Positions 4,313-47,858 of a stretch of 57,228 nt of DNA are shown here, one piece after another (position 1 is the stretch's first letter; each line of letters opens with the position of its first letter). Both the position numbers and the translations under genes were made by a program. This stretch comes from Escherichia phage PHB10, in the sequence record MK524177.1. One strand, given 5' to 3'. The notes beneath the pieces are model-generated. The model did no database searches. It worked only from the letters and a program-made list of their open reading frames with translations, and was not told the origin of the DNA.

Positions 4313-4614
4313 TCGCGCTGCCCCATCAGCTCGCGGTAGTAGGTTTCCGGGATGGCCTTCATCGCCGCCGGATAGTTTTCCAGCAGCACCGACAGGTTTT
4401 CCGCGTTGAATGCATCCGGAAGTGCCCAGCCAGCAATGATTTCCATCAGAAAATCAGTGGCGGTTTTACCTTCGAGTTTTTCGAGGTCAGCCAGTTCTTT
4501 AAGTGGCTTGTGGTTGAACGTGAACGTCAACACGCCATCCTCATCGCCAGCTCGGGGGATCGAGACATTGGCCTTGAATGTAGGTTTTGGCTGAAGGGAG
4601 AATTTGGTCGCCAT
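4303..4614 (-). CDS. tail assembly chaperone (G-like)
   Basis: 103 aa ORF directly upstream of the tape measure gene; ends at a slippery heptamer. Confidence 0.75.
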   Translation of the reverse strand: MATKFSLQPKPTFKANVSIPRAGDEDGVLTFTFNHKPLKELADLEKLEGKTATDFLMEIIAGWALPDAFNAENLSVLLENYPAAMKAIPETYYRELMGQREKN

Positions 4615-4678
4615 CGATACCTCTTAACGAAAAAAGCCTCCATTATGAGAGGCATGGAATAGTGAAAGCTCTGACGGG

Positions 4679-36418: not shown

Positions 36419-39400
36419 ATGGAATTTTTCTATGTAGTGAAGGCTACGCAGAAATCTGGCAAAGAAGACGCAGTGATTTGGTTCACTGCTAAATCAGAAG
36501 CCCGTGCCAACCTGCAGCTCGATGTCGAGCTGGAAGATGCAGGTATTGAAACCGGCCGCGGTAAGGATTACTCAAAACCGGTTCGCACCGATTTCCCTGT
36601 TTACAACGATCTGCCTGAAGAAAGCACCGTGGATTACATCTGGTGCAAACGCTACGAACTGCAGGACGATGGACGCACCTGGCTGCCAAAGGCTGGTGCT
36701 GAGTCGACTGGTGACATGGACAGCTCTGCCGCACCGGAGACGACCGTTAATGTCGAAACTACCGTCGAAAGTGTCCCGCTTGAAAACCGCACTCCAGCGG
36801 TCCGTTTTGCCGTCCATCTGACCAGCGACAAATACCAGTCACACATCACTAAAGAGCAGCAGCTGGCTGCCAGCGAAATGTCACTGGATGAAGGCAACAC
36901 CTATCTCCAGAATCTGCTACTGGCGAAGAACGACACCCCTGAAGTTGCCGAACTCAGCCTGAACGCTGAGTGGAAACTGGTACAGGTGATTAAACAGGTA
37001 TTCGCGCTAGATGAAGAGCACGAAGTAAAGCTACTTGCTGCTTTCATGGCCGACTGGTTGAGAGTTGATGCCGGCGCCCGTAATGAGGTAGTGAGAGAGT
37101 GGAAGAACGGAAAGCTTACTCTGCTCAAATCAGAAAGAACCAGCGACGCCGGGGTTGAAACTGATCAGCATATCGCTATTGATGACGGTATCCAGATCGG
37201 CGAGCACGACGATGAAAACACCCGTTATCCAGTGTGCAGAATGCCCTTCCGCAAGCAACTTCTTTCACAGTTCACCGCCGACGAACTGCGCCACCACTTA
37301 ACCCGCGAAGAATACGAAGGTATCAGCGCGCTGGAAATGGACACAGACAACAGCTATGTCCAGAACCTGCTTCTGGCGGCAGAAAACTGCGAAGAGGTTA
37401 AGGGTTACGATACCAAAGACCTGTGGCGCTACACCGACGCCATTCGCAAGGTGTTCAGCCAGGAGAAGCGTCACGAACTCGCTTTGGTTCTCCGATTCAC
37501 CAGAATCTGGGCTGCGACTGATTACATTGACCGCGGCACCCTGGTGCGCGAATGGGTTGAGGGTAATCGCATTTCTGAAGTAGGTTCTCCTGCACCTTTA
37601 GAACCAGAAAAACCAGAAACAACCGAATCCTATAAACGCGCTGTTGCCCAGAACATGGCGAACTTGAGCATTGAGATCGCGATTGCTCAGCTTTACCCAG
37701 ATGCAGTACCGGGGCAAATCAACCGTACGCAACTCCTGGCCGCCAAAGAACTCGCTGACAAAAAAGATGAGTCGCACGCCAAGGCGCTCAAGGTTCTTAG
37801 TAAAACCACCGACATCCTCGACTACGACGCCAACAGTATTTTTGGAGTTACCCGCGCTATTTCATGGTCTGGAGAAGAAAGCACAACCAAACTGCGTAGC
37901 CAGGTGCGTGAGTGGTTCACGGCGAACGGCATCTATGAAAGCGGTGAGCGCTCTAAAGGATATCCAGAATGGAACGAAGACTCCCGCGAGGTTCGTCATT
38001 CCACAGTGGAAGAACCAAGTACTCCAAGCCAGACAAAGGTCGCAAGCCTTGGAAGCGGCGTGTTCTCCATCGATGGCCTGATGGATGGAAATACCGAACC
38101 GGTCATCAATACCAACTCAAATGAAGTCGAAAAAACGGAAAAAACAGCGGAGACCACCAGCGATGTGCAGATGGAAACGGCTAAGCCAGAAAAAGACGAA
38201 GATGTTGGTTCGGTACCACCGAGCGAAAGCACTGATGCAGCTAATTCGCAGACAGATTCCGTAACGTTGGAAGAACAGCAAGCAGAACCGGTAATTGAGT
38301 ACCCAGCTTATTTCGAGCCTGGCCGCTACGAAGGCCTACCGAATGACGTTTATCACGCAGCAAACGGTATTAGCTCAACCCAGGTGAAAGATGCCCGGGT
38401 CAGCCTGATGTATTTCAACGCACGCCATGTGGCTAAAACTATCCCGCGCACAGCATCCAAAGTTCTGGACATGGGGAACCTGGTGCACGCCCTTGCACTG
38501 CAACCGGAAAACCTCGATGCAGAGTTCAGCGTGGAGCCTGAGATCCCGGACGGTGCTTTCACCACAACCGCAACTCTGCGCGAGTTCATCGACGAGTACA
38601 ACGCTAGCCTGCCGGCGCTGCTAAGCGCTGACGAGATTAAAGCGTTGCTTGAAGAACATAACGCATCCCTTACAGCTCCAGTGCCGCTTGGCGCGAGCCT
38701 GGAAGAAACGGCTCAAAGCTATATGGCTCTCCCTGCTGAGTACCAGCGTATTGAAGAAGGCCAGAAGCAAACGGCAACGGCAATGAAGGCGTGCATCAAA
38801 GAGTACAACGCTACCCTGCCCGTGCCGGTTAAAACCAGCGGCAGCCGTGATGCGTTATTTGAGCAATTAGCAATCATCAATCCAGACCTGGTGGCGCAAG
38901 AAGCGCAGAAACCGACACCGCTGAAAGTGTCAGGCAGCAAAGCAGACATGATCCAGGCTGTTAAGTCGGTTAAGCCCGATGCCATATTCGCCGACGAACT
39001 GCTGGATGCCTGGCGCGACAACCCTGGCGAAAAGATTCTGGTTACCCGCCAGCAGCTGGCCACAGCGCGGGCAATTCAGTCTGCACTCCTGGCGCACCCT
39101 ACAGCTGGCATGCTGCTGACACATCCAAGCCGCGCTGTTGAAGTGAGTTACTTCGGCTTTGACGACGAAACAGGTTTAGAAGTGCGTGTACGCCCTGATC
39201 TCGAGATTGAACTGGACGGCGTGCGAATTGGCGCCGACCTGAAAACCATCAGTATGTGGAATGTGAAGCAAGAAAGCCTTCGCGCCAGGCTGCACAGGGA
39301 AATCATAGACCGTGACTATCACCTCAGCGCGGCTATGTATTGCGAGACCGCGGCGCTGGACCAGTTCTTCTGGATTTTCGTCAACAAAGACGAGAACTAC

Positions 39401-39592
39401 CACTGGATCGCTATCATCGAGGCGTCAACCGAACTGCTGGAGCTGGGCATGCTCGAGTATCGCAAAACGATGCGCGCCATCGCCACAGGCTTCGATACTG
39501 GCGAATGGCCAGCGCCGATCACTACCGATTACACCGATGAACTGAACGACTTCGACCTGCGCCGCCTCGAAGCGCTGCGCGCTCAGGCTTAA
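36419..39592 (+). CDS. RecE-like exonuclease VIII (PD-(D/E)XK nuclease C-terminal domain with long acidic N-terminal region)
   Basis: 1057 aa; C-terminal VRPDLEI...ADLKT nuclease-like motifs; immediately followed by the annealing-protein gene. Confidence 0.7.
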   Translation: MEFFYVVKATQKSGKEDAVIWFTAKSEARANLQLDVELEDAGIETGRGKDYSKPVRTDFPVYNDLPEESTVDYIWCKRYELQDDGRTWLPKAGAESTGDMDSSAAPETTVNVETTVESVPLENRTPAVRFAVHLTSDKYQSHITKEQQLAASEMSLDEGNTYLQNLLLAKNDTPEVAELSLNAEWKLVQVIKQVFALDEEHEVKLLAAFMADWLRVDAGARNEVVREWKNGKLTLLKSERTSDAGVETDQHIAIDDGIQIGEHDDENTRYPVCRMPFRKQLLSQFTADELRHHLTREEYEGISALEMDTDNSYVQNLLLAAENCEEVKGYDTKDLWRYTDAIRKVFSQEKRHELALVLRFTRIWAATDYIDRGTLVREWVEGNRISEVGSPAPLEPEKPETTESYKRAVAQNMANLSIEIAIAQLYPDAVPGQINRTQLLAAKELADKKDESHAKALKVLSKTTDILDYDANSIFGVTRAISWSGEESTTKLRSQVREWFTANGIYESGERSKGYPEWNEDSREVRHSTVEEPSTPSQTKVASLGSGVFSIDGLMDGNTEPVINTNSNEVEKTEKTAETTSDVQMETAKPEKDEDVGSVPPSESTDAANSQTDSVTLEEQQAEPVIEYPAYFEPGRYEGLPNDVYHAANGISSTQVKDARVSLMYFNARHVAKTIPRTASKVLDMGNLVHALALQPENLDAEFSVEPEIPDGAFTTTATLREFIDEYNASLPALLSADEIKALLEEHNASLTAPVPLGASLEETAQSYMALPAEYQRIEEGQKQTATAMKACIKEYNATLPVPVKTSGSRDALFEQLAIINPDLVAQEAQKPTPLKVSGSKADMIQAVKSVKPDAIFADELLDAWRDNPGEKILVTRQQLATARAIQSALLAHPTAGMLLTHPSRAVEVSYFGFDDETGLEVRVRPDLEIELDGVRIGADLKTISMWNVKQESLRARLHREIIDRDYHLSAAMYCETAALDQFFWIFVNKDENYHWIAIIEASTELLELGMLEYRKTMRAIATGFDTGEWPAPITTDYTDELNDFDLRRLEALRAQA

Positions 39593-41032: not shown

Positions 41033-41245
41033 ATGTCGCAGGTAATATTTAACGAAGAATGGGTTGTTGGCGCAAGGCTCACAGAAAAAACAGGCCTGAC
41101 CGAACGACAGATTGAGAAGTATCGCCAGGGCTGTTGGGTGGAAGGTGTCCATTTTAAACGGGTTTCTCCTTCCGGAGAAAAAACCTTGCGTGGCACAACC
41201 TGGTACAACTATCCGAGAATTAATCAGTTAATAAGGGATGCGTAA
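41033..41245 (+). CDS. xis: excisionase
   Basis: 70 aa basic protein immediately upstream of and overlapping int. Confidence 0.7.
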
Positions 41246-42485
41246 GATGGCAGCTATGCCTACAGGTGTCGAAATCAGAAACAATAAGATTTGTATCTGG
41301 TTTATGTACCGGGGAAAGCGTTGCCGCGAAATTCTCAAAGGTTGGATTAACACTCCGGCGAACATCAAAAAAGCCGGAAATCTTCGGGCTGTGATCGTTA
41401 GTGAGATCAACCTTGGAGAGTTTGATTACCACCAGCGCTTTCCTTCATCGTCCAGAGCAAAAAAAACCGTAACCACTGTTTCAGTTCAAACCTTTTCAGA
41501 GCTGTGTGAACTGTGGACGAGCATTAAAGAAACCGAAATTAGCGCGAATACCATGCGTAAGACGCGCTCACAACTCGGTACGTTAATGCACATCATTAAC
41601 GGAGATACGCCTGTTTCAACTATACGCCACAGCGACATTCTGAAATACAGGAAGGAGCTGTTGAACGGTGAGACACTTTACCTGGCAAATCCCAGAAGTA
41701 ACAAACAGGGACGCACTGTGCGTACCGTGAACAACTATATATCGCTTCTGTGCTCCCTTCTTCGGTTTGCACACAAATCTGGCTTTATCAGTGGCAAACC
41801 ATTTGAAGGGATCAAGAAACTACACAAAGGGAAAGTAAAACCGGATCCTTTAACGAAGCAGGAGTTTAGTTTGCTTGCGGCATCCGAGCGTGGCCAAAGC
41901 CTCAATATGTGGACGTTCGCAGTTTATACTGGTGTCCGTCATGGAGAGCTTGCAGCTCTTGCCTGGGAAGATATCGACTGGGAAAAAGGTACGGCTCATA
42001 TACAGCGCAACCTTAATGCGCTAGGAATGTTCGTCCCACCAAAAACCGATGCAGGTGATCGAGTTATCACGCTATTAGAGCCGGCACTTGAAGCCTTGAA
42101 AGCACAGCGCAAGCTAACAGCGCTGCAGCCTAAAACCGAAATTGTCTTTAATCATCGCGAGTATGGCGCAGTGGAACATCAAAGCCTGCGATTCGTTTTC
42201 ATACCCCGGATGCGCAAAGGAGAACAGAAAGCCTACTACTCTTTATCGAGCATCGGTGCGAGATTCAACGCAGCTGTAAATCGTGCTGGTATTCGCCGCC
42301 GGAATCCGTACCATACGCGGCATACTTTTGCCTGCTGGCTTTTATCTGCCGGCGCTAACCCGTCTTTCATAGCCAGCCAGATGGGGCATGAAAACGCGCA
42401 AATGGTTTATGAAGTCTACGGTGCGTGGATTGAAGAAATGAATGGCGAACAGGTGCTGATGCTTAACGATAAGCTGGCACGCTGA
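41238..42485 (+). CDS. int: tyrosine integrase (lambda-type with N-terminal arm-binding domain)
   Basis: C-terminal catalytic motifs (R...[28 protein letters not shown]...Y); 415 aa; adjacent to the repeat-flanked att region. Confidence 0.9.
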
Positions 42486-42493
42486 AAAATTTT

Positions 42494-42740
42494 TGCCCCT
42501 ATTATGCCCCTATTGGCTCCGAAGGTAGTAATAAATGCAAGAAAATCAACAAAATACAAAGAAAGAGCAATACAACCTGAATAAGCTACGCTGATTTTGC
42601 CAACTCATTGATATCATTTGTTTTTCATTTAAATCAATTAGTTATAGCATAATAGTTTCTCCCTAAAGCTACCCAGAACTACAATTTTAGTGCCCTTTTT
42701 TTGCCCCTATTTCGCATTTTTGCCCCTAAATTTGCCCCTA
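42494..42740. repeat. attP-like attachment region: five direct TTTGCCCCTATT arm-type repeats flanking an AT-rich core
   Basis: Perfect TGCCCCTA at 42494, 42505, 42702, 42721, 42733 (degenerate copies at 42691, 42772); AT-rich 42513-42690 between clusters; starts 6 nt after the int stop. Confidence 0.5.
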
Positions 42741-42811
42741 TCTTTAGCCAGTGCGCCACCCTTATTCTCCCTGCCCTATACTTTAAGTCTGACATCTGGT
42801 TCGAGGTTTCT

Positions 42812-43486
42812 ATGTGTGGACGCTTTGCACAAGCTCAAACGCGTGAAGAATATCTGGCTTACCTGGCCGATGAAGCCGATCGCGACATCGCATACGACCC
42901 TGAACCTATTGGACGTTACAACGTGGCGCCAGGTACCAAAGTTCTGTTGCTGAGCGAACGTGACGAGCAGTTGCATCTCGATCCGGTCCTGTGGTCTTAC
43001 GCGCCCGGGTGGTGGGATAAAGCACCATTGATAAACGCGCGTGTCGAGACAGCGGCCACCAGCAGGATGTTCAAACCTCTCTGGCAGCATGGCCGGGCAA
43101 TCTGCTTTGCTGATGGATGGTTCGAGTGGAAGAAGGAAGGCGACAAGAAGCAGCCATATTTTATTCACCGGGCAGACGGTCAGCCGATATTTATGGCCGC
43201 GATCGGCAGCATACCGTTTGAGCGAGGCGATGAAGCAGAAGGTTTTCTGATAGTAACGTCTGCCGCTGACAAAGGCCTAGTGGATATTCACGACCGCCGG
43301 CCCCTGGTCCTATCACCAGAAGCGGCCCGGGAATGGATGCGCCAGCATGTTGGAGGAAAAGAAGCGGAAGAGATTGTATCTGACGGCTCTGTACCAGCTG
43401 AGATGTTTGTCTGGCATGCTGTGTCCCGTGAAGTAGGAAATGTAAAAAATCAGGGGAGAAAATTGATAGAACAAATAGATATATAA
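42812..43486 (+). CDS. SOS response-associated peptidase (SRAP / YedK-like abasic-site processing protein)
   Basis: Starts MCGRF (catalytic Cys2 hallmark); about 225 aa. Confidence 0.85.
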   Translation: MCGRFAQAQTREEYLAYLADEADRDIAYDPEPIGRYNVAPGTKVLLLSERDEQLHLDPVLWSYAPGWWDKAPLINARVETAATSRMFKPLWQHGRAICFADGWFEWKKEGDKKQPYFIHRADGQPIFMAAIGSIPFERGDEAEGFLIVTSAADKGLVDIHDRRPLVLSPEAAREWMRQHVGGKEAEEIVSDGSVPAEMFVWHAVSREVGNVKNQGRKLIEQIDI

Positions 43487-43537
43487 TCTGATGTACTTTT
43501 GATGTGTACTTTATATTTGGTTTAATATTATCTCCCT

Positions 43538-43738
43538 TTAAGAAAGAAATATATTTGCAGCCATCGGACCACTAACCCCATTTATACGATAAAATTCAAC
43601 ACGAACGCCAGGTTTTAACGTTTGGCTTTCATTATTACTAAATGCGGAAATATGTAAAAAAACATCTTTCCTGCCATCTGATGGGATAATCAATCCCTTT
43701 CCGCTCTTGAAGTCAAAACTTTTGACAATTCCTGTCAT
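43538..43738 (-). CDS. cold-shock-domain protein (CspA family)
   Basis: [33 protein letters not shown]... RNP-like motifs. Confidence 0.8.
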
Positions 43739-44037
43739 TTTACGAGACAAATATTTTCCTAATGGCAATCCAGATTTGACTATACAGGATTGGTTAATAA
43801 TAGCCAAACCTATTTTATTGGCCTTCCGGAAGGCTAAAATAAAATTTGCTTAATCTTTCAGCACGTGCCTTAATGGTTTGGCTGATTCATTGCGATGATG
43901 AATCTAACTTTTCCAAAAGCCGTTCTCATAACTAGGTGTTATCTCTGATATCCCTCCTTTTGAGTCCATACATATACCAGCATACGTTTCTTATCATGAG
44001 CTTGCTTGTCAGTTTGAAATGTTCAAACGGAGTTTGT

Positions 44038-44256
44038 ATGTCATCTAAAATCATAGGTCTTGTTAAGTGGTTTAACGAAGATAAGGGGTTTGGCTTTATC
44101 TCCCCACTTGATGGAAGTAAAGATGTTCTTGTTCACACTTCTTCCCTGCGGGGAGAAACATTTAATACTCTTTTTGAAGGACAAAAAGTCAAATTCGCTA
44201 TCATAGCTGGAACTAAAGGTCCAATCGCTGCCAATGTAACACTTTGCGATAGATAA
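44038..44256 (+). CDS. cold-shock-domain protein (CspA family)
   Basis: [35 protein letters not shown]; start 44038 with GGAG SD. Confidence 0.85.
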
Positions 44257-44497
44257 TTTTAGATGGTTTACTTAAGCCAGCATGACTTTATCAGTGAAAG
44301 GTGATGTTCGGTTACTCACATCATTACAACAGGCCAGCATATTTACTTACCATCAAGTTTGCTGACCGATGTGATGAAATGCAGGACTGCTGCATGAACA
44401 GTCTCAAAGCAGAAGCTAACTGCTTATAAAATACTAAAGTGCGTAAGAGGTTAGGCAGCCTCCAAAAGCATCACTTCTTATTTTTTAATAATTTTTT

Positions 44498-44662
44498 TTA
44501 GAAGCGCTGGGAAGATTTGAACAAAGCACAGCAGTATGGGCACACCAACTGAGCCCCCTTTTGTACACGATTGTAACTATGTTCGGAATCTTTTGAGCAG
44601 TTTGGACAAGGACATTTTACCAAATAATTTCGGCGGAATTGAGTATTTTTACGTGCAGACAT
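44498..44662 (-). CDS. small Cys-rich zinc-ribbon protein
   Basis: 54 aa from MSARKN with CPCPNC...CPYCC; GGAGAAG SD. Confidence 0.4.
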   Translation of the reverse strand: MSARKNTQFRRNYLVKCPCPNCSKDSEHSYNRVQKGAQLVCPYCCALFKSSQRF

Positions 44663-44810
44663 AGACTTCTCCAGTTCAAATGGACCGTTACAGTACACGT
44701 TAAGACTGTATAATGCTTGTTTTAATTTCGAAAGAGGCAAAAAAAATGAACAAACAGAACTCTTTCGACCACCTGCAGGGGCTAGAAACCCTCAAAATAC
44801 ATGGTGATAT

Positions 44811-45038
44811 ATGAAAAAAGTAATCATTTTTTTTAATGGTAAGCCAAGTAAAGTTATCACTGTGCTTAAAGGTGTGACATCAATACTCGAAGAATATCCT
44901 AATGGAGAAGTGATAAACCTTCAGATAATGTCAGCAGGTTTTCCCTCTTTAACAGGTGACCATGAAGTGGTTTATGTGGCATCAGATCGAGAGCTTACCT
45001 CTCAGGAAATATTAGATGCGGCGCAGAAGTATCTTTGA
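44811..45038 (+). CDS. hypothetical protein (self-contained AT-rich moron)
   Basis: 75 aa ORF with its own terminator. Confidence 0.4.
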   Translation: MKKVIIFFNGKPSKVITVLKGVTSILEEYPNGEVINLQIMSAGFPSLTGDHEVVYVASDRELTSQEILDAAQKYL

Positions 45039-45099
45039 CGCCTGAGATTCAACGCCAACATTCATAAAATCATTATTATAACTACGTTTAATTATTATG

Positions 45100-45124
45100 G
45101 CCTGCTTAATGCAGGCTTTTTTTT
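45100..45124 (+). terminator. intrinsic terminator
   Basis: gcctgc-ttaat-gcaggc followed by T8. Confidence 0.65.
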
Positions 45125-45211
45125 ACCCCCACACAAACAATTATAATTAAGACAAGTGCATCCAACATCATGGCAATATGACTTTATTGCTGAAGCAACC
45201 ATAAGGCTTCC

Positions 45212-45550
45212 ATGAAAATCCTACAATACACAGTATTAATAGTTATTGAAGCACGATCCTCAGATAATAATATCAACCCTCTTCTCTTGGGTCTCTTGCA
45301 TGACAGAAACTATTCAAGTAAGTCAAACCGAGGCGTTAAACTTCCATCCCATGCATTCATTGGTTCAGAGGGGCAGGCAGTTTTAGAGTGGCAGTCTGAA
45401 AAAGATGGAGCAGAAATACTAAAAAAAAGACTCTACCAGATGCTGCATGGAATTACACGTTTAGAAGAGTTTCCCACAGCAATTTTTCTAATGATTTGCC
45501 CAGAAGAAAAAACCTTAACCTTTGTTTCAAGACTTAAAGAAAAAAAATGA
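45212..45550 (+). CDS. hypothetical protein (AT-rich moron)
   Basis: 112 aa ORF. Confidence 0.4.
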   Translation: MKILQYTVLIVIEARSSDNNINPLLLGLLHDRNYSSKSNRGVKLPSHAFIGSEGQAVLEWQSEKDGAEILKKRLYQMLHGITRLEEFPTAIFLMICPEEKTLTFVSRLKEKK

Positions 45551-45926
45551 ACATCGTTATTTCAGCCTTCACCATCTCAAAATGCTGCGATCGTGAAAAC
45601 TGCGAAAGAAAATCATGAGGCACATCAGTAAATATTGTATCATTTGCTAAGCATTGCTGTTACATTCGGTTTAATGATGAATCCTCCTAAGCGGCAGGGC
45701 TAATTAACCTGATGATTTGTATATCAAGCGGCTCATCGTGAATTTCTGAAGCAGCGAGTCACGAGTGGTTAGGTCAATGACTCACCGGGAGGCACCCGGC
45801 ATCATATCCGTAAGCCCCTGTATAATTGCAGGGGCTTATTTACATTACAAAAGCATAGTCTTAGACATATTACTGTTAATACTCATAGCCGATAATTAGG
45901 CTCGAATGAATAGACCGTTTAAAGAA

Positions 45927-47195
45927 TCATCTAACTTTTATTAGGTCTGAATACCTCGTAGTATATCGTGGAGATAACATATCCCGTTTCATCTGCCACT
46001 GCTGCTGTATGCCCTGCCCGGCAAAGTAAAGCGTTCCTTTTCCATCTTTCGCGTTCAAGTGATCGAGCACCTCCATCAACTTATCGCTTCCTGCGCGTGG
46101 AGCGTTCTCATCGAAAAGGTTCAACTGCGCCACCCCTTGGCTGAAAAAATCTCCCAGCATGATTCCAGCCTTTTGATAGCGATAGCCATCCTTCCAGATT
46201 TTGTCCAGGCACTTTACCGCGGCGTTGATTATGTCGCGGGAATCCTGTGTAGGGGTGAGAAGCTTCATGGACGCGCTGTTACCGTAATATGGCTCGTTAA
46301 GCGCAAAGGGAGAGGTTTTCACGAACGCAGAAATAAAGCGGCAGTACTGATGCTCTCCCCGCAACTTTTCTGCGCCTCGGGCCGCATAACTGCAAATGGC
46401 CTGCCTCATTTGTTCGTAATCAGTGACGCGTTCACCGAATGACCTGCTACAGACGATCTCCTGCTTTGCCGGCGCAAATTCCTCCAGCTCGAGACAGGGC
46501 TCGCCGCGCAGCTCCCGGACAGTTCGCTCCAGGACGACATTAAAGTGTTTGCGGATAATCCACGTGCTTTGTTCAGAAAGGTCCAGAGCTGTTTTGATGC
46601 CCATGGCATTCAGCTTCTTACTGATGCGCCTGCCTACGCCCCATACATCTTCTACTGGCACGATGTCGAGCAATCGGCGCTGGCGGTCGATATTGGATAA
46701 ATCAACTACCCCTCCCGTTTGCCGCTGCCATTTCTTCGCGGCGTGGTTGGCCAGCTTGGCCAGTGTCTTTGTCTGGGCAATTCCAATCCCGACAGTCAGG
46801 TGCGTCCGCTTCAGAACGGTAGCGCGGATTTCTTTGCCGAACTCAGTAAGATCCCGGCAATTGCGAACACCTGTTAGGTCACAAAATGCTTCATCGATAC
46901 TGTAAATTTCTACGCGAGGGCTCAACTCCTCCAGTGTGGTCATTACTCGATTCGACATGTCTGCGTACAGCTCGTAGTTACTGCTGAAGCAAACAACCCC
47001 AGCGCGCCGAAATAAGTCCTTTTGCTTGAAGAAAGGCTCTCCCATTGTAATTCCAGCCGCCTTGGCCTCGGCGCTGCGCGCGATTACGCAGCCGTCATTG
47101 TTCGAAAGAACAACCACTGGCCGCCCTTTCAAATCGGGACGAAACACCGTCTCGCATGATGCGTAGAACGAATTCACGTCGCAGAGCGCAAACAT
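45927..47195 (-). CDS. umuC: translesion DNA polymerase V catalytic subunit UmuC
   Basis: Y-family polymerase N-terminus [15 protein letters not shown]; 422 aa; directly downstream of umuD. Confidence 0.9.
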
Positions 47196-47197
47196 AC

Positions 47198-47617
47198 TCA
47201 GCTCGCCGATTTGACGATGAAAGTAACAACGCCGAAAACGTCCAGCGTATCTTCGCTGCCTACAACAATCGGACTGTAGGCGCTATTCATTGGGATGAGT
47301 TGGACATTTGGACGCAACTGCAAACGCTTAACAGTGAATTCCCCTTCAACCGCGGCGATGACAATGTCACCGTGCTCAGCCGTGCGCGAACTATCCACCA
47401 CCAGCAGATCACCGTCGCTTATCCCGGCTTCGATCATTGAATCCCCCGCGGCTTTGACGAAATATGTAGAGCTCGGGTGAGCGACAAGTAACTCATTGAG
47501 ATCGATACGCTGTTCAACGTAATCAGCTGCGGGGCTTGGGAAACCACACTGTACTAAGTCACTGAAAAGCGGAAGAGCGATAATATCTCGCAGTTCTGTT
47601 GGCCTGATGAATTCCAT
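47198..47617 (-). CDS. umuD: UmuD (LexA-like S24 peptidase, polymerase V accessory subunit)
   Basis: 139 aa from MEFIRP; Ser-Lys dyad context (AAGDSM ... VKRL). Confidence 0.9.
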
Positions 47618-47632
47618 TGCACACACCTCAAA

Positions 47633-47652
47633 TACTGTTTTTATATACAGTA
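47633..47652 (-). promoter_or_regulatory. LexA (SOS) box upstream of umuDC
   Basis: TACTGTTTTTATATACAGTA fits CTGT-N8-ACAG, 16 nt upstream of the umuD start. Confidence 0.8.
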
Positions 47653-47858
47653 GTTTTATTTGTAAGTGTCCGCAAGATACAGGCCCTATCGTCACTGCTT
47701 AAAGCTTCGCCGTTTCGTTTCTAAGTTTATCTCTCGTTTCGAATTATCTCTTTTGTAAATTTTTCAATAATGGCGCAGATGTAAGCAGATTTGAGGGAGA
47801 CAAAGCCCGTTAAATGCCAGAACGGGCTGCGACTGAAAGCTAAGTCTTCATGATTCCG

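Follow-up and report, generated by a model that had tools for sequence, protein, structure and literature searches.

How does the attachment site of a Rac-type lambdoid phage compare with those already described? In the best-established design, that of phage lambda (Landy and co-workers), a heterobivalent tyrosine integrase acts on a phage attachment site (attP, or POP′) with a short P′ arm at the 3′ end of int and a long P arm opposite; the arm-type sites are unlike the core and are separated from it by sites for integration host factor (IHF), and the xis gene adjoins. The closest relative of the site treated here is that of Rac, a much-used model cryptic prophage of Escherichia coli with the integrase IntR and the excisionase XisR, for which the searchable literature describes only a 26-base pair (bp) core. 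Rac inserts in the 5′ end of ttcA and swaps the N terminus of TtcA (PMC4632033; PMC6379469); like e14 at icd, it carries a duplicate gene terminus, so that the target gene is intact after insertion (PMC6379469). Here we analyze sequence record MK524177.1 (Escherichia phage PHB10), a stretch of 57,228 bp that we call the window, in which positions 42486–42745 are very likely the intact attP of a Rac-family Enterobacter lambdoid phage, laid out on the lambda plan and served by a heterobivalent integrase (Int) with TGCCCC arm sites. A sequence-only reading of this DNA had noted a likeness to lambda-family arm sites next to int; the likeness holds, as the site lies directly 3′ of a tyrosine integrase with an arm-binding domain.

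The integrase gene (41238–42485, plus strand) encodes 415 amino acids that are 69% identical to IntR of E. coli Rac over the full length. Residues 8–72 of Int form a Pfam arm-DNA-binding domain (PF12167, Arm-DNA-bind_2; E = 8e-26), followed by the catalytic domain PF00589; no solved structure was found for the arm domain, all PDB matches being confined to the catalytic part. Overlapping the start of int is an excisionase-like gene (41033–41245, plus strand, 70 amino acids), a counterpart of XisR/YdaQ that matches Pfam PF06806 ("putative excisionase," DUF1233) with E = 1e-24 and stands upstream of the integrase as xisR stands to intR in Rac. As in lambda, structural genes are followed by accessory genes, att, int (facing the opposite way), xis, and recombination genes, an order that puts the repeats where an attP, here unsplit, is to be expected.

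The core lies within a phage-borne copy of the start of ttcA. This 5′ fragment (42535–42594, plus strand) reads MQENQQNTKKEQYNLNKLR, the first 17 ttcA codons and then a stop. In E. coli genomes, a sensitive search paired 42492–42584 with the intR-ttcA junction of Rac prophages at ~80% DNA identity, the matches being annotated as ttcA, and a search of phages matched the att core of Rac-SA53, annotated as attP in its record. The core common to attP and attB, AAGAAAGAGCAATACAACCTGAATAA (42559–42584, plus strand), has 24 of 26 bases in common with the annotated 26-bp Rac core AAGAAAGAACAATACAACCTGAACAA and is placed ~50 bp from the int-side pair of repeats and 105–160 bp from the far cluster. As the sequence-only reading had expected, the core could be searched against host genomes and the target read from it: as is known for Rac, it is the start of ttcA that is targeted. 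Of the species representatives, only three contain the exact 26-mer. In Enterobacter sichuanensis the copy (L128) is the attL of a PHB10-type phage family; in E. chuandaensis an int remnant is followed by the core, a far arm, and a gene of the SRAP family; and in Rouxiella badensis an int remnant is followed by ttcA. The exact core in these species points to Enterobacter, of the cloacae complex, as the host.

Where do integrated copies join the chromosome? Scanning IMG/VR with Int returned 80 loci (loci carry L numbers here), most of whose proviruses are trimmed at the int stop codon. The attL copies L034, L039, L062, and L064 consist of the int end, two repeats, the ttcA′ start, the core, and then the ttcA body. 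They track the window up to CAACCTGAATAA, similarity ending after 42584, and then run into full ttcA; the window itself goes on with GCTACGCTGA. The attL of Enterobacter sichuanensis (L128) makes the same switch into ttcA after CAACCTGAATAA. The opposite junctions, retrieved by a scan with the far-arm pattern (attR; L085, L088, L094, L103, L112, and others), have the host ttcA 5′ end, the core, and a window-like far arm running into the SRAP gene. An attR and an integrase were found at the two ends of the same provirus contig in L085/L040, L100/L019, L114/L020, L119/L024, and L112/L060. Across the Enterobacter genomes and IMG/VR proviruses, the switch between phage and host in both attL and attR falls at 42571–42584, inside the interval 42513–42690 in which the sequence-only reading had placed the crossover, and the attL/attR comparison that it had proposed puts the junctions at the core, not elsewhere.

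Polymorphisms place the exchange more closely. The attR copies retain host bases to the left of the block TACAACCT (GAACAG, at 42567 and 42570), and the attL copies retain host bases to its right (CCTCAAC or CCTGAAC, at 42579 and 42582), which narrows the exchange to TACAACCT. Strand exchange thus most likely occurs in this block, at 42571–42578 on the plus strand. The block is invariant in the P-arm alignment except for TACAATCT in two Rac-type loci, and the identity segment around it measures 14–26 bp, its length varying with the ttcA allele of the host. Where the junctions lie, what their sequence is, and which gene is the target are direct observations; the exact cleavage positions are what we infer from them.

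Two clusters of repeats flank this region. Exact copies of TGCCCCTA start at 42494, 42505, 42702, 42721, and 42733, five of five on the plus strand, just as first reported, and they are not random: dinucleotide shuffles predict 1.36 copies for the whole window, which has 7 (a number reached in 0 of 100 shuffles), and the Poisson probability of five same-strand copies in 326 bp at the background rate is ~7e-15. The 12-mer TTTGCCCCTATT is exact only at 42492 and 42700, the remaining copies having TTTGCCCCTA or TATGCCCCTA in common. No second TGCCCC cluster exists elsewhere in the window, and a repeat search found TGCCCC to be the only word common to both arms. Counted from the crossover block to the start of TGCCC, P′ site 1 (TTTGCCCCTA, 42492–42501) lies at −77, the same offset as in Rac and other lineages, and P′ site 2 (TATGCCCCTA, 42503–42512), 11 bp past site 1, at −66. 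Across the core are P-arm sites b (TTTGCCCCTA, 42700–42709, +132), c (TTTGCCCCTA, 42719–42728, +151), and d (TTTGCCCCTA, 42731–42740, +163), the last at a position that is degenerate in Rac (TTGCCACC, TTGCTACC). Before them comes site a, a TGCCCT that is degenerate in PHB10 (42691–42696, +121) and whose counterpart in most relatives collected by their core is a TGCCC at +121/+122; all of these sites are on the plus strand. Because the int-side pair TGCCCCTATTATGCCCCTATT resembles the pair at 42691–42711, TGCCCTTTTTTTGCCCCTATT (86%, repeat search), the far side has four positions, not the three of the first count. The two int-side sites are spaced by 11 bp and the four far sites by 11, 19, and 12 bp in turn, or roughly one or two helical turns, and the six sites make three pairs, each about one helical turn apart.

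The sequence-only reading had also mentioned two degenerate copies without locating them. One is site a, a conserved far-arm position. The other would be TGCCCTA at 42773, which is probably not an arm site: it lies upstream of the SRAP gene, is confined to SRAP-bearing relatives, and is variable there (TACCC, TGCCA). The ~190 bp between the clusters are indeed AT rich (31.7% G+C at 42513–42701, 50.3% in the window). They do not form an "AT-rich core," however, but hold the ttcA 5′ fragment, an off-centre core, sites that resemble those of IHF, and a stretch where the excisionase probably binds. The inverted repeat formed by CTATTATGC at 42499–42507 (the P′ site junction) and GCATAATAG at 42647–42655 (in the P arm after the second IHF site), perfect over 9 bp, may be due to chance.

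Are the repeats conserved among relatives? A first survey of the far arm was queried with the repeats themselves and was biased for sites b and c; it was redone with the core-only pattern CARTACAACCTGAAYAAG, which is blind to the repeats, and the conservation claim rests on this second survey, with offsets counted from the T of TACAACCT to the start of TGCCC in unique ttcA-type attP/attR sequences. Far-arm TGCCC motifs occur at about +122, +133, +152, and +164, with three or four kept in most relatives, and int-side motifs at −77 and −66 are usual where a phage-type left arm is present. All arm motifs are on one strand and fixed to within 1–2 bp, and the offsets hold despite largely dissimilar spacers (L132, L136, L138, L141, and the Rac group). 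The arm windows of nine unrelated chance core matches contained no TGCCC. Over 33 unique arms, column conservation is 0.88 in the four hexamers vs. 0.74 in the rest of the arm (permutation P = 0.005). Degraded elements lose sites: L140 has one far-arm copy left, L127 is without d, and b is mutated in L137. The P′ pair follows the int stop in all Int-found relatives that have DNA beyond int with ttcA next (L034, L039, L049, L062, L064, L072, L075, L079), and in Rac. Relatives with the same or with diverged integrases thus keep the repeats at fixed positions; the sequence-only reading had held that their absence from relatives with the same integrase would count against it.

The far cluster also keeps its distance from the crossover whatever gene adjoins the P arm: an SRAP gene in PHB10, a tail-fibre gene in Rac, and others in L086, L119, L136, and L138. 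The SRAP loci of E. coli and Gifsy-2 resemble the window only from about 42741–42766 rightward, past the repeats. The repeats therefore travel with the integrase and the core, not with the neighboring gene. Where the far-end Rac junction borders the native E. coli DNA upstream of ttcA, no arm word was found. The 51 bp that separate the intR stop codon from the ATG of ttcA in E. coli Rac hold TTTGCCCCCAATTTGCCCCATTT, and the far arm of Rac-SA53 carries TTGCCCCATTTTTGCCCCTTTTGCAGCACTTTGCCCCATTTTTGCTACC ~120–165 bp past the core in the same orientation. Among deposited phages, no close relative spans the att region; matches are limited to the SRAP gene (Gifsy-2) and int fragments.

The PHB10 site is a member of the Rac/IntR att family, every testable defining feature of which was found in it, and it follows the standard lambda-type heterobivalent design. 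With Rac (Rac-SA53, KU052037; CP-933R; Sp10) it has in common the recE-recT-…-xis-int-att order, the related integrase, the ttcA 5′ target with a phage-supplied N terminus, the near-identical core, two TTTGCCCC sites in the gap from the int stop codon to the ttcA start codon, and a far cluster with the same 11/19/12-bp spacing and the same offsets. The two differ in host (Enterobacter for the PHB10 type, E. coli for Rac), in the bases after the arm word (TA in five of five in PHB10; A, C, or T in Rac), in the degenerate far position (a in PHB10, d in Rac), and in the neighbor of the P arm. Right of the core PHB10 has AAGCTACGCTGA, whereas Rac has AAGTAAGGGCAAAAA with an inverted GGGCA at +19. 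PHB10 also looks complete, with structural genes and recET, whereas Rac is cryptic. On the inverted motif, Rac-type attP/attR loci (L004, L091, L097, L098, L113, L120, L121, L124) carry an inverted arm-word core, GGGCAAAAA (the reverse of TTTTTGCCC), at +19, immediately right of the core; the family of the window is without it and has a direct-oriented TTTTGCC at 42596–42602 instead.

Every feature of the lambda plan outlined at the start can be recognized in PHB10, the arm-type and IHF sites as predicted sites, and there are several differences. The arm word is TTTGCCCC in PHB10 and (C/A)AGTCACTAT in lambda; PHB10 has 2 + 4 sites in one orientation, whereas lambda has 3 + 2 with P2 inverted; and the arm domain is PF12167 in the one and PF09003 in the other. 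The lambda identity segment is 15 bp (14–26 bp in PHB10), and its target is the gal-bio intergenic site, whereas PHB10 enters coding sequence and brings a replacement start. In this last respect it is like e14 and phage 21 at icd, where a phage-carried duplicate likewise keeps the target gene intact. There, however, the 3′ end is replaced, whereas PHB10 replaces the 5′ end, with the start codon and the upstream region; host ttcA therefore gains phage upstream DNA that includes predicted Int arm sites.

Accessory sites can be proposed between the core and the far arm. The perfect IHF consensus WATCAANNNNTTR has four matches in the 57-kilobase window, two of them between the core and the far repeats, and these are consensus matches only: predicted sites TATCAATGAGTTG (42601–42613, minus strand) and AATCAATTAGTTA (42632–42644, plus strand). 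At the position of the latter, the TCAA....TTA block stands out as conserved in most lineages, that of Rac among them. A further IHF site, H′-like in its position between the core and the P′ pair, might tentatively be seen in AATCAACAAAATA (42544–42556, plus strand), which has one mismatch to WATCAANNNNTTR; its counterparts, AATCAACAAATTA in Rac and AATCAAGAGATTA in the ttcA alleles of hosts, fit the consensus exactly. Binding by Rac XisR is known at the level of a whole attR fragment, 294 bp long and inclusive of the far arm, which it shifts (PMC4632033). This shift and a conserved position lead us to propose 42666–42682 (plus strand) as a candidate excisionase-binding stretch: it holds the direct pair AAGCTAC / GAACTAC, 10 bp apart, and conservation peaks at this point, past the IHF site and just short of site a on its core side.

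What, then, binds the TGCCCC repeats? The arm-binding domain of Int, one word common to both arms, and fixed phasing make arm-type Int sites the best reading, and the repeats are very probably such sites; the domains of Int and the conservation and spacing of the repeats are observed, and from these we infer the pairing of protein with element. Excisionases, as known for lambda Xis, typically recognize direct repeats spaced by about one turn of the helix, which counts for an alternative in which the site is attP but TGCCCC, at least in the far cluster, binds the XisR homologue or another accessory protein and Int has its arm sites elsewhere; the XisR shift of a fragment holding the far arm counts for it as well. 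We think this improbable, because the same word recurs in the same orientation, paired and at a fixed offset, on the int-proximal arm, where lambda-type excisionases do not bind, because the arm domain of Int needs cognate sites on both arms and no other word is common to both, and because the separate conserved AAGCTAC / GAACTAC pair is free for Xis. Transcription signals are a further candidate, with the int-side pair part of the promoter or leader of the transplanted ttcA and the far cluster acting on the SRAP gene at 42812 as an operator or promoter. The geometry would allow it, with the P′ pair 23–41 bp upstream of the ttcA′ ATG and still upstream of ttcA in lysogens, and the far cluster 72–120 bp upstream of the SRAP start codon. 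A consensus scan of 42300–42900, however, found no sigma-70-like promoter and no intrinsic terminator, and so lends no support to a promoter or a sib-like terminator; the far cluster keeps its crossover distance where no SRAP gene is present (tail fibre in Rac; L086, L119, L136, L138); and the similarity among SRAP loci begins only right of the repeats. Such a role is very improbable, and a secondary regulatory effect of Int at the P′ pair may exist. Scarcely credible is a cluster of no present function, arisen by chance, from low complexity, or as the scar of earlier tandem integrations. The ttcA locus does gather scars, and fossil int C-terminal fragments with degenerate TGCCCC pairs occur in the host flanks of attR, but chance is excluded by the shuffle and Poisson figures, the sites stay within 1–2 bp of their place relative to the crossover across lineages whose spacers have diverged, and degraded elements such as L140 and L127 lose them.

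Several points nonetheless weigh against the interpretation of the site as an attP with Int-bound TGCCCC arms and an exchange in TACAACCT. The overlap call draws on a few polymorphic lysogens and presumes that their phages shared the attP sequence of the window, and some Rac-type phages carry CCTCAAC themselves (e.g., L099). Inspection and a repeat search recognized no clear inverted core-type sites around TACAACCT. The far-arm repeats could be bound by excisionase, not Int, and we found no paper that maps the arm-type sites of IntR-family/Rac integrases or describes the motif. In L066 (Int 96% identical) and L077 (69%), an AT-rich gene cassette follows int and no P′ pair occurs in the available 1–3 kilobases; their att sites are out of view, and these loci neither support nor refute the interpretation. 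The cassette (L077, 4297–7223; L066, 4250–5327) is on the strand opposite to int and may be an accessory module inserted between int and att; that of L077 has open reading frames (ORFs) of 744 and 228 amino acids that by eye look peptidase-like and ATPase-like.

If the repeats are arm-type Int sites, a lambda-like reaction can be proposed. The catalytic and core-binding domains of Int would act on the core (42559–42584) within the first ttcA codons, and its N-terminal domain would hold the TTTGCCCC(T/A) repeats, two on the short P′ arm (−77, −66) and four on the long P arm (+121, +132, +151, +163), so that Int would bridge arm and core sites and exchange strands inside the identity segment. 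IHF would bend the DNA at 42601–42613, at 42632–42644, and perhaps at 42544–42556, folding the arms back onto the core. For excision, the product of the gene at 41033–41245 would probably bind AAGCTAC / GAACTAC by the P-arm sites and drive the reaction. Integration would split ttcA after about codon 13–16. The phage-borne start (42535–42594) and its upstream DNA, P′ pair included, would become the new start of the host gene and drive ttcA, and the old ttcA start would stay at attR, fused to Leu-Arg-stop.

The host flanks have a history of their own. The "host" side of attR almost always contains a fossil Rac-family int C-terminal fragment (residues about 311/347–408) and, immediately ahead of the start codon of ttcA, a TGCCCC pair in degenerate form; such left flanks were observed in L085, L087, L089, L094, L103, L107, L108, L114, L117, L119, L131, L144, L150, L126, and L127. 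These fragments and pairs suggest that the start and upstream region of ttcA in Enterobacter and Rouxiella are an old attL scar beside which new phages insert. Left of the core, L090, L100, L101, and L137 have an int remnant with part of the int interior (…CCGTACCATACGCGGCATAC) fused directly to the second P′ site; the fusion looks like a deletion between the similar CTTTTGCCTGCTGGCT (inside int, about 42325–42343) and TATGCCCCTATTGGCT (P′ site 2). One 14,122-bp contig (L105/L072, IMGVR_UViG_3300009944_000122) begins and ends with the same 59 bp, which indicates a circular element of ~14.06 kilobases. On it are a Rac-family int, an intact attP whose arms are arranged in the same way, and SRAP-sized and umuDC-sized ORFs; with no ORF above 422 amino acids, it is apparently without large structural genes and might be the circle of a defective prophage or else resemble a satellite. 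An unrelated attP-like site in L110 (4427–4775; IMGVR_UViG_3300043120_000159) has four TTTGCCCC(C) repeats immediately upstream of the gene for an integrase with just 22% identity and no match to PF12167; a tRNA-Met (CAT, 4550–4630) follows, and then two more pairs of TTTGCCCCC.

The window as a whole is a lambdoid phage genome that starts and ends inside tail genes. Minus-strand structural genes leave it at the left end and reappear at the right, and this gene order suggests a circularly permuted record, with no overlap found between its two termini. The recE-recT-xis-int genes lead into the att region on the plus strand: the Rac recE position is occupied by a gene of 1057 amino acids (36419–39592, plus strand), and a RecT-family gene and a DUF4060 gene likewise stand on the plus strand before the excisionase gene. 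Beyond the far repeats, the accessory region next to attP (42812–47695) is a DNA-damage-tolerance gene cluster in a phage. It includes the SRAP (YedK-like) peptidase gene (42812–43486), a cold-shock-domain ORF matched by Pfam (43538–43807, minus strand) and another judged by eye (43936–44256, plus strand), and a umuD/umuC-like pair (47198–47695 and 45927–47195, minus strand). Elsewhere, the phage encodes a tRNA-Arg (anticodon TCT, 17805–17881, minus strand), and a 20-bp exact direct repeat, aagagacTGCCCCtcgtcgg, occurs at 14927–14946 and 15042–15061, 115 bp apart, in or near the ORF at 14588–15082.

What does the PHB10 site add? Current understanding is not overturned by it. The new content is modest, a map at single-base level of the arm and accessory sites of IntR-family integrases that covers the core, the probable overlap, six arm positions, IHF sites, and a candidate Xis site of an apparently complete phage. 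The map makes IntR-family recombination testable and offers a possible integration tool at ttcA in Enterobacter and E. coli. A more speculative idea, which from the sequences we regard as possible and rather unlikely, is that the TTTGCCCC word and its rigid 2 + 4 all-direct geometry represent an uncharacterized intasome architecture common to ttcA-targeting Rac-family phages. If this were true, the same arm word at the unrelated tRNA-Met attP of L110 would hint at a widely shared arm-recognition code, and the P′ pair would stay upstream of host ttcA after each cycle of integration and excision. Left there permanently, it would give Int, or the Int of a resident prophage, a place from which it could regulate this tRNA-thiolation gene, the start and upstream region of which are rewritten by repeated phage visits.

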